Assembly: GCA_964016885.1 (NCBI GenBank) | Contig: OZ024763.1 | Location: 5,580,001 to 5,644,000 of the forward strand | DNA length: 64,000 nt | DNA from: Eledone cirrhosa | Taxonomy: Eukaryota | Direction of reading: 5' to 3' | Notes under the pieces: model-generated | Told to the model about the DNA's origin: nothing | The model's database searches: none | Seen by the model: only the letters and a program-made list of their open reading frames with translations | Shown here: piece after piece, positions 25,001 to 28,000 of the stretch | Numbering within the stretch: the stretch's first letter is position 1 | Layout: every line of letters begins with the position of its first letter | Position numbers and translations under genes: made by a program

Positions 25001-28000
25001 GATTGGCAGTATCTGTAGAGCGTCAGAGAACATGCTTTGCGGCATAGAGTTATGGCCCTTTACCGTCTAAGTTAAAATCCCACCGAGGTTAACTTTGCCT
25101 TTCACCCTTACGGGGGTCGATAAATAAAAGTACCAGTAATGCACTGGGGTAATTGCTGGCCTTGTGCCAAGATTAGAAACAGCTATTGTTCTACTTGTTT
25201 CTGTTGTAATTTAGCCCGAGGTCAGCTGTGACAATCACAAGACACGACAGCCTCCCTAATGTTAGTGATCTACAGGATAAAAACACCCAGTAGACATTGT
25301 AAATTAGTTGATGATGATGATGATCATCATCATCATCATTTTACGTCCTTTTTTCCCCGCTTGCAAGGGCATCCAGTCGTAGAAAGCTTGTCAAACAAAA
25401 GGTCGAGAGGATCCTTCAGTTATGTCAAAGACATGACACCCTCTCAAGTGCTGGTGCCACTATAAAATGCACTTAGTAGAACATGAGAGAGTATATAAGC
25501 AAGACTCTGGGAGGTCAGTAGCACATGCTTCAGTGCTGACTCAGTCTGTGAGAACCCATCCAATCTCTAGCAGAGAGTGCAGGCATTAAATGATGAGGAC
25601 ACATAGTTAACTATGCCGTATGGTACCTCAGGAATGTTGTCTGGTACCTTTATACATTACAGGTACCCCCAGGGTATGGTAAGGGTGGTTTCATGCCATA
25701 TGGTGTCTCAGGAATGTTGTCTGGTACCTTTATACATTACAGGTACCCCCAGGGTATGGTAAGGGTGGTTTCATGCCGTATGGTACCTCAGGAATGTTGT
25801 CTGGTACCTTTATACATTACAGGTACCCCCAGGGTATGGTAAGGGTGGTTTCATGCCGTATGGTGTCTCAGGAATGTTGTCTGGTACCTTTATACATTAC
25901 AGGTACCCCCAGGGTATGGTAAGGGTGGTTTCATGCCGTATGGTGTCTCAGGAATGTTGTCTGGTACCTTTATACATTACAGGTACCCCCAGGGTATGGT
26001 AAGGGTGGTTTCATGCCGTATGGTATCTCAGGAATGTTGTCTGGTACCTTTATACATTACAGGTACCCCCAGGGTATGGTAAGGGTGGTTTCATGCCGTA
26101 TGGTGTCTCAGGAATGTTGTCTGGTACCTTTATACATTACAGGTACCCCCAGGGTATGGTAAGGGTGGTTTCATGCCGTATGGTGTCTCAGGAATGTTGT
26201 CTGGTACCTTTATACATTACAGGTACCCCCAGGGTATGGTAAGGGTGGTTTCATGCCGTATGGTGTCTCAGGAATGTTGTCTGGTACCTTTATACATTAC
26301 AGGTACCCCCAGGGTATGGTAAGGGTGGTTTCATGCCATATGGTGTCTCAGGAATGTTGTCTGGTACCTTTATACATTACAGGTACCCCCAGGGTATGGT
26401 AAGGGTGGTTTCATGCCGTATGGTGTCTCAGGAATGTTGTCTGGTACCTTTATACATTACAGGTACCCCCAGGGTATGGTAAGGGTGGTTTCATGCCATA
26501 TGGTGTCTCAGGAATGTTGTCTGGTACCTTTATACATTACAGGTACCCCCAGGGTATGGTAAGGGTGGTTTCATGCCATATGGTATCTCAGGAATGTTGT
26601 CTGGTACCTTTATACATTACAGGTACCCCCAGGGTATGGTAAGGGTGGTTTCATGCCGTATGGTGTCTCAGGAATGTTGTCTGGTGCTGCGACATGCTTC
26701 TATGGATTTGTAGGCTTTGACTGTATTGCCACCACAGGTGAGTTACTACTACTACTACTACTCCTGCTACTACTACTGCTACCACTAATACTACTACTAT
26801 TATTACTATTACCATTACGACGACCACCACCACCACCACCACTACTACCACCACCACCCTCATGTTTTGTTGTGTTTTTCAGGTGAGGAGGCTAAGAACC
26901 CCCAGAAGTCCATCCCCATCAGCATCATCGTATCCCTGATCATCGTCTTCCTCTTCTATTTCTTTGTGTCAATGATCCTTACCATGATGTCCCCTTATTA
27001 TCTGCTTGATGTTGATGCCCCTCTGCCGGCAGTCTTTAGTTCTGTTGGCTGGGAGACAGCCAAATATGTCATAGCAGTTGGGGCCATATGTGCATTGACA
27101 GCCAGGTGAGTTGTCTTTCCTTGGATTTCTAACCTACTTTAGTCAATATATATATATATATATATATATATATATATATATATTATATTATATATATATA
27201 GAAGGCACATGGCTTAGTGGTTAGAGCATTGGCCTTGCAATCGAAAGGTTGTGAGTTCAATTCTCAGACCGGGTGATGTGTTGTTTCCTTGAGCAAGACA
27301 CTTTATTTCACATTGCTCCAGTTTACTCAGCTGTAGAAATGAGATGCAGTGGAATGATAGGGATCCCAGTCCCTATCATTCCACTGCAAAGTGGTCGTGG
27401 AGGTGCCACGGCAAAAAAGCACCCAGCACTCACTGTAAATGAGGTTGGTGTTAGGAAGGGCATCCAGCTGTAGAAATCAAGCCAGAATCAGTTCCCGTCC
27501 CACCCTTGCAAGCAGGGAAAAAGCGGACGTGAAATGATATATATATATATATATATATATATATATATATATATATATACAAAAATACGGGTTATGAGGC
27601 GAGGCTGTATGGTTACTGAAAATGAAGTGTTAGAAGGTAATCGGGACACAAACCAGAGAAGAAAAGTTTCCCTTCGTCAGCTCTTTACTACGTATCTTGG
27701 ATGTTTCGGTGCTTAAAACAGAACATCGATCCATAGCGCGCCCATGACCTTTATATATATATACTTCAGGGATGGTTTTTCATTGTTATAATACTGAATT
27801 GGCAGGTCATCCCTGAATTGAATCAGCCCTCTATTTTCTATTTTCTGTTTTTGTTTGCTATAAACCTAATTCTGCAATCCACACCTGATGAAATCACCTA
27901 ATTCTAAAGTAAATTTTCCAGTCCAGCCTTCTGTAGTTTTTAATGAATACTTAATTCTGTCCCTGCACCAGCCACGGAATACCACATCTGTGATGGATGA

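Follow-up and report, generated by a model that had tools for sequence, protein, structure and literature searches.

A tandem duplication across the junction of intron 5 and coding exon 6 of an octopod transporter gene would have expanded into an 80-bp minisatellite that is common to two long-diverged paralogs, gene A and gene B, having been copied between them by gene conversion anchored in the conserved exon. The last acceptor of the array would be chosen by pairing across the exon with one strong donor, and the other copies would be tolerated as intron. We hold this reading, taken as a whole, at a probability of about 0.7. The conversion of single exons between ancient paralogs, splice sites and repeats included, is a more solid finding than the regulatory reading of the array, in which the number of copies tunes expression.

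An array of exon 6 acceptors in gene A

The window, that is, the whole stretch of 64,000 nucleotides analysed, holds gene A on its + strand (12898..36901), an SLC7A1-3 (CAT)-like transporter gene of 14 coding exons and 599 codons without an internal stop. Orthologs carrying PF13520 and PF13906 map onto all 14 exons, exon 5 matches the solved CAT1 with an E value of 6e-10, and the full-length homology to CAT1 together with the two domains places the protein among the SLC7A1-4 cationic amino acid transporters. The exon 7 protein is 92-93% identical to those of Octopus bimaculoides and O. sinensis, so the host is an octopod. Coding exon 5 (24598..24737, + strand, phase 0) ends in CAG with the donor CAG|gtaaaa, coding exon 6 (26623..26737, + strand) has the true acceptor and the donor CAG|gtgagt, and coding exon 7 (26883..27105, + strand) follows an intron of 145 nt.

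Analysis with TRF identified an array of period 80 from 25613 to 26685 (+ strand), with 13.4 copies and 98% matches, as one of numerous 40-80-bp arrays in the window. Each unit is composed of a 17-19-nt spacer from the intron end, closing in CAG, and the first 61-63 nt of coding exon 6, and the acceptor listing gives 13 acceptors at 80-nt steps (25663, 25743 ... 26623), 12 of which (25663..26543, + strand) lie upstream of the true one. The first-pass annotation had described the 13 acceptors, and had placed the start of the array at 25613 in exon-derived sequence, which is exon 6 position +31; both points agree with the present analysis. Its division of the unit into 17 nt of intron end and 63 coding nt is one of the possible cuts, the exact boundary being ambiguous because GT is common to both sides. 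Having a unit of 10-100 bp that contains an authentic splice site together with exon and intron bases, the array is a splice-junction-spanning minisatellite of the F7 IVS7 type.

Every unit boundary reads CAG|GTACCC, and a further donor-like site, ATG|GTAAGG, lies 16 nt into each unit and is present also in the true exon 6; these motifs, and the CAG at the end of exon 5, had likewise been described correctly. The nine GTs of a unit reach at most 6/9 matches to the donor consensus, compared with 8/9 for the true exon 6 donor, CAG|GTGAGT. True donors elsewhere in gene A (E3, E9, E11, E12 and E13) show 5-6/9 matches themselves, so that strength does not set the internal 6/9 donors apart from functional ones. 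Simple extension from each of the 12 upstream acceptors runs into a premature stop, as the first reading had it: extension from 26543 meets TAG at 26711, and extension from the other 11 meets TAA in the third unit. The accompanying claim of a single productive copy, the last, is correct as far as simple extension goes. It fails for a second, predicted type of product, as a splice into acceptor k and out of the ATG|GTAAGG site of unit k+1 would yield a cassette of 96 nt and phase 0 that keeps the frame and is free of stops in 12/12 positions, and a 141-nt variant that uses the weaker +61 donor keeps the frame too.

The possibility that the assembly had multiplied a single unit was checked against reads. 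In DNA run X1 the 110-nt unit contig has a depth of 171.7 and the exon 7 contig one of 5.3, giving ~32 units, contig depth being a rough measure rather than a copy number and X1 perhaps coming from the very sample that was assembled; the assembly total for both loci is 33 units. A length of 110 nt would be expected of a contig from an 80-nt cycle assembled with 31-letter words. A single-unit artefact is ruled out by this depth and by a second array that has variants of its own. The comparison of read contigs covered the last two units with exons 6-7; it is from the assembly that the 5' edge in A and the division into 13 and 20 units between the loci are taken.

Single exons shared with an old paralog, and the age of the array

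A search of the host's own genome found the second array at C24:3897091-3898731, on the same contig as the window, on the other strand and 1.7 Mb off, with 20 acceptors and its own variants. It belongs to gene B, an old paralog of A, and both genes are present in O. sinensis, O. bimaculoides and Argonauta. An uncollapsed haplotype as the source of the second locus is ruled out by introns that cannot be aligned and by identities of 66-74% in 7/10 exons (E2 71.7%, E4 69.2%, E5 68.6%, E7 66.4%, E8 74.3%, E12 69.6% and E13 67.9%); exon 5 of B ends in AAT. In contrast, the remaining three of the ten exons compared are nearly identical: E3 (18632..18760, + strand) at 99.2%, with 1 difference in 129 nt, E6 at 98.3%, with 2 differences in 115 nt and 0/38 in amino acids, and E9 (30321-30423) at 98.1%, with 2 differences in 103 nt. 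At fourfold sites A and B differ in 74/107 positions across six unconverted exons and in 2/61 across E3, E6 and E9, and the other exons are near silent-site saturation.

The shared tracts cross splice sites into introns that are otherwise unalignable. The exon 3 tract runs on through the donor into the intron, where a 40-bp minisatellite (18786..21245, + strand) is common to intron 3 of B; the second takes in the 80-bp array before exon 6; and the third (30124..30433, + strand) comprises a 40-bp repeat, ~75 nt of intron end and exon 9. Strong matches to the 40-bp family of intron 3 were found solely in A intron 3, in B intron 3 and at window positions 33059-34415, a second array of the family that begins 12 nt past the exon 11 donor of A. 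Minisatellites touch all three shared tracts. As a cause of the tracts they were nevertheless rejected for want of enrichment, since complex minisatellites cover about 30% of both genes (33% of A, 29% of B) and repeats are found at distances of 14-60 nt from unconverted exons as well. At its end in B, the exon 3 tract repeats the final bases of the exon together with the donor, as a 32-bp duplicate past the 40-bp array (C24:3905660-3905691, - strand) that has the A allele at the single site where the two exon 3s differ. Such a duplicated exon end and donor could be what one-sided repair synthesis leaves behind.

Near-identity that extends to silent sites, between paralogs otherwise so diverged, is likely the signature of interlocus gene conversion confined to single exons. 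The paralogs are older than the tract and, at the protein level, closer within it than in other species: among the 38 residues of exon 6, the paralogs of O. sinensis, O. bimaculoides and Argonauta show 3, 6 and 7 differences, compared with none between A and B here. Protein conservation was rejected as the sole cause of the identity, given that exon 2 keeps 34/39 residues and yet differs at 20/25 fourfold sites. E3, E6 and E9 rank among the best-conserved exons between the paralogs in O. sinensis, O. bimaculoides and Argonauta, and homology combined with low cost can therefore explain why it is these exons that were exchanged.

Both loci adjoin clusters of a 15.5-kb repeat that includes fragment B-type exons 8 and 9. 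The exon-bearing copies, 94-98% alike, number 4 behind B (C24:3813512-3884000) and 6 before A (C24:5488098-5580000), in both cases without N gaps. Inverting the stretch between the clusters would yield a tandem row of B, repeats and A, though with ends out of register. This arrangement suggests that A and B were once tandem neighbours, and the repeats would offer long blocks for pairing.

Run X5 comes from another species, with 13 differences in 257 nt around exon 7. Its 110-nt unit contig, at a depth of 105 against 20.9, corresponds to ~5 units by depth and carries 8 differences, one of which is a B-type Glu codon (A26641G). A further X5 contig joins the array edge, at exon position +18, to a flank with a motif that has 13 matches in B intron 5 and 0 in the window, from which the array would predate the split from the X5 species and would at that time have sat at the B locus. 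A-type Lys and Val codons are found in exon 6 of both A and B, and the B-type codon and flank in the X5 array, a distribution that points to a later passage of the array to A and of the A-type Lys and Val codons to B, the direction and order having two codons and one flank contig as their basis. The 5' edges of all three arrays (+31 in A, +23 in B and +18 in X5) fall in exon-derived sequence, so that none of them retains its native upstream intron. This loss may represent removal of a competing first acceptor, or chance; selection for it was set aside as a weak argument, since 63 of the 80 unit positions are exon-derived anyway. Three spacer differences in X5, within window positions 26604-26622, create CTAAT, which we take to be a branch-like motif; its A lies 11 nt upstream of the junction, closer than usual.

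Choice of the acceptor in the spliced message

Spliced transcripts were examined in run X3, the sole RNA library, which derives from another sample and has no library type on record, and whose contigs are spliced. The same exon 6 start follows exon 5 of A at a depth of 11.3 and exon 5 of B at 5.4, and one contig of 119 nt continues from that start across the stretch that the last copy alone possesses. Spacer sequence occurs in 0/4 of the X3 contigs examined and no backward joint is listed for this run, in which NMD targets would be depleted and from whose contigs rare forms drop out. In this one library, judged by its contigs, the mature messages of A and B alike are made mostly with the last acceptor; splicing has to pass 12 decoys, as the earlier annotation had anticipated.

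An in-silico 31-mer graph of both messages predicts private contigs of 370 nt, from E3 +86 to E6 +30, for both genes, and X3 records 4 and 6 are indeed both 370 nt, which provides independent support for E3 and E6 being shared. At exon 9 the graph calls for a break, with a contig of 436 nt, but X3 record 7 has 1266 nt and is unbroken across 30321-30423, so that the sharing of exon 9 is uncorroborated by X3. The missing break could come from a low depth of B combined with cleaning of the graph, or from an exon 9 of B that escaped conversion in the X3 animal.

Exon 6 of A lies between an intron of 1885 nt upstream and the short one downstream, the latter having 386 nt in B. In humans, long upstream and short downstream introns behave as exon definition with regard to 3' site choice; the upstream 3' site is preferred overall, and exon definition merely reduces this preference (the parts of PMC9225289 drawn on here). 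A tendency, rather than exclusive use of the last acceptor, is what such a rule would produce. Judged from these human data, the last acceptor alone would form a short exon with the CAG|GTGAGT donor, of 115 nt as against 195, 275 ... 1075 nt for the others, and the spliceosome would pair it across the exon with this single strong donor, leaving the upstream copies in the intron. Leaky use of decoys would mostly be frameshifted and then cleared by NMD. Cross-exon definition of the last acceptor is a likely mechanism by this analogy, which assumes that the human rule carries over to octopus; our literature search found no cephalopod data on 3' site choice under exon definition. RNA structure favouring the last acceptor was rejected, the local fold showing no difference among the 13 (unpaired probability 0.005-0.020 for all).

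The first-pass annotation had proposed that array length acts as a rheostat, each extra acceptor diverting transcripts to premature stops and NMD and so tuning the transporter level. Stops in 12/12 simple extensions, a unit number that varies by locus and species (13, 20 and ~5 by depth) and acceptors that are identical and equally structured in the local fold would all suit this proposal. The spacer is, however, absent from the X3 contigs examined, B gives spliced message in spite of its 20 acceptors, and the repeated donors of human F7 are silent (PMC1557585, parts drawn on here). We found no evidence in support of the rheostat in contigs that can lack rare or degraded isoforms, and regard it as improbable; the surplus copies are probably tolerated and would not serve as a dosage switch. 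About equally doubtful is a minor isoform in which the in-frame cassette adds at least one 32-residue module to the loop before transmembrane helix 6. The frame and the lack of stops permit it, the site takes indels within the family (12 extra residues in Xenopus SLC7A3, 7 in the solved CAT1 chain), the module is too weakly hydrophobic for a membrane helix (best 19-residue mean 0.56), and splicing at the tandem AGGT sites of human UBC is stochastic (PMC10809524, parts drawn on here). Against it, neither the joint nor a loose end of it is present in the X3 contigs, and the ATG|GTAAGG of the true exon 6 is read through there. A broader proposal is that minisatellites drive single-exon conversion between ancient paralogs and thereby export splice-site architecture, the exported array yielding NMD-bound messages, or isoforms with stacked 32-residue modules in an indel-tolerant loop, with a frequency that depends on the number of units; we consider it unlikely.

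Stepwise removal of intron 5 by recursive, ratchet-like splicing had also been put forward on account of the CAG|GT geometry. Recursive sites are a feature of very long introns. The unit boundaries do match the donor consensus at 6/9 positions, and a mature message is blind to whether an intron left in one step or in several. On the other hand, a recursive splice site is an AG|GT that regenerates a strong donor, and what was found is 6/9 in A and, because exon 5 of B ends in AAT, AAT|GTACCC with 4/9 in B, which joins exon 6 correctly all the same. Steps of 80 nt in an intron of 1.9 kb would moreover bring no evident gain, and ratcheting appears very unlikely. Least credible of all is a misassembly that fused loci A and B into a chimera and so produced the shared exons and arrays. 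Adjacency of both loci to a common 15.5-kb repeat cluster, and absence from X3 of the break expected at exon 9, are the observations in its favour; but each array has private variants and edges of its own, in X3, from another sample, both exon 5s lead into one exon 6 start and two contigs have the 370 nt predicted by the graph, the X1 depth agrees with 33 units, and 344 kb are without N gaps. The reading that fits best is again that of an array copied by conversion, with its last acceptor defined across the exon.

Recurrence of junction-spanning arrays and comparison with known systems

Other arrays and duplicates at splice junctions were observed. The exon 7 donor of B is repeated nine times by a 32-bp array of 9.3 copies (C24:3896132-3896440, - strand), and in an SLC6-family gene a repeat of ~125 bp with 2.9 copies (1149-1528 within C25:10093770-10096919) triples an acceptor together with ~22 exon bases. 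The start of exon 4 of gene A has a degenerate copy at window positions 21655-21705, ~85 nt upstream of the true acceptor. A control survey of kinase and SLC6 matches gave 0/60 with a junction-spanning array, many of the kinase matches being long single stretches with few junctions, and 1/27 exon matches on smaller contigs had one; a second candidate among these 27, a dinucleotide-type repeat touching the match edge, was dropped. A rough neutral expectation, from array and junction densities, is 0.50 junction-spanning arrays for A and 0.45 for B, and two independent events were seen. From this estimate and the controls, such arrays are an uncommon yet recurring by-product of a repeat-rich genome.

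The two genes constitute a natural test of 3' splice-site choice, with 13 and 20 identical acceptors in identical upstream context, and they differ in the end of exon 5 and in the downstream intron (145 against 386 nt). They also show that paralogs with saturated silent sites still exchange single exons along with splice sites and intron repeats, which in octopus genomes is a source of error for gene trees, for the mapping of reads and for annotation. If the use of decoys scaled with unit number, the array would be a heritable splicing dial, and no evidence for such scaling was found. In the open literature, subscription papers and supplements being outside the scope, we found neither this locus nor an acceptor array this large described, nor an array shared by conversion between old paralogs, nor such arrays in cephalopods.

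Published systems resemble parts of this pattern, as far as the parts of the sources drawn on here describe them. In intron 7 of human F7 a 37-bp VNTR repeats a donor and the pseudo-sites are silent (PMC1557585). There, as here, the unit spans an exon-intron boundary and multiplies a splice site, and in F7 the copy nearest across the exon is the one normally used, as the X3 contigs suggest for A and B; unlike F7, the present arrays repeat an acceptor, 13 and 20 times, include 61-63 coding bases per unit and are common to two paralogs. The donor array at exon 7 of B is the direct analogue of the F7 VNTR. Among human paralogs, variable internal tandem repeats at exon-intron boundaries differ in number and can alter splicing (PMC2812944), and these resemble the present junction minisatellites in differing in number between paralogs. 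The human paralogs are, however, recent and nearly identical segmental duplicates, whereas A and B are ancient copies whose silent sites are saturated except in three exons. Human UBC (PMC10809524) is likewise a tandem array with AG|GT at each unit boundary, but its units keep the frame and splice variably, while the 80-nt units here shift the frame and variable splicing is unseen in X3. In Arabidopsis halleri, mosaic interlocus conversion has been modelled for young copies of HMA4 (bioRxiv 10.1101/2025.10.29.685298). As in HMA4, the conversion rate varies within the gene, conserved exons being homogenised and long introns escaping. The HMA4 copies are young and most of their exons take part, whereas here single exons are converted amid neighbours of 66-74% identity and, unlike those of HMA4, the tracts between A and B carry non-homologous intron repeats and splice sites along with the exons.
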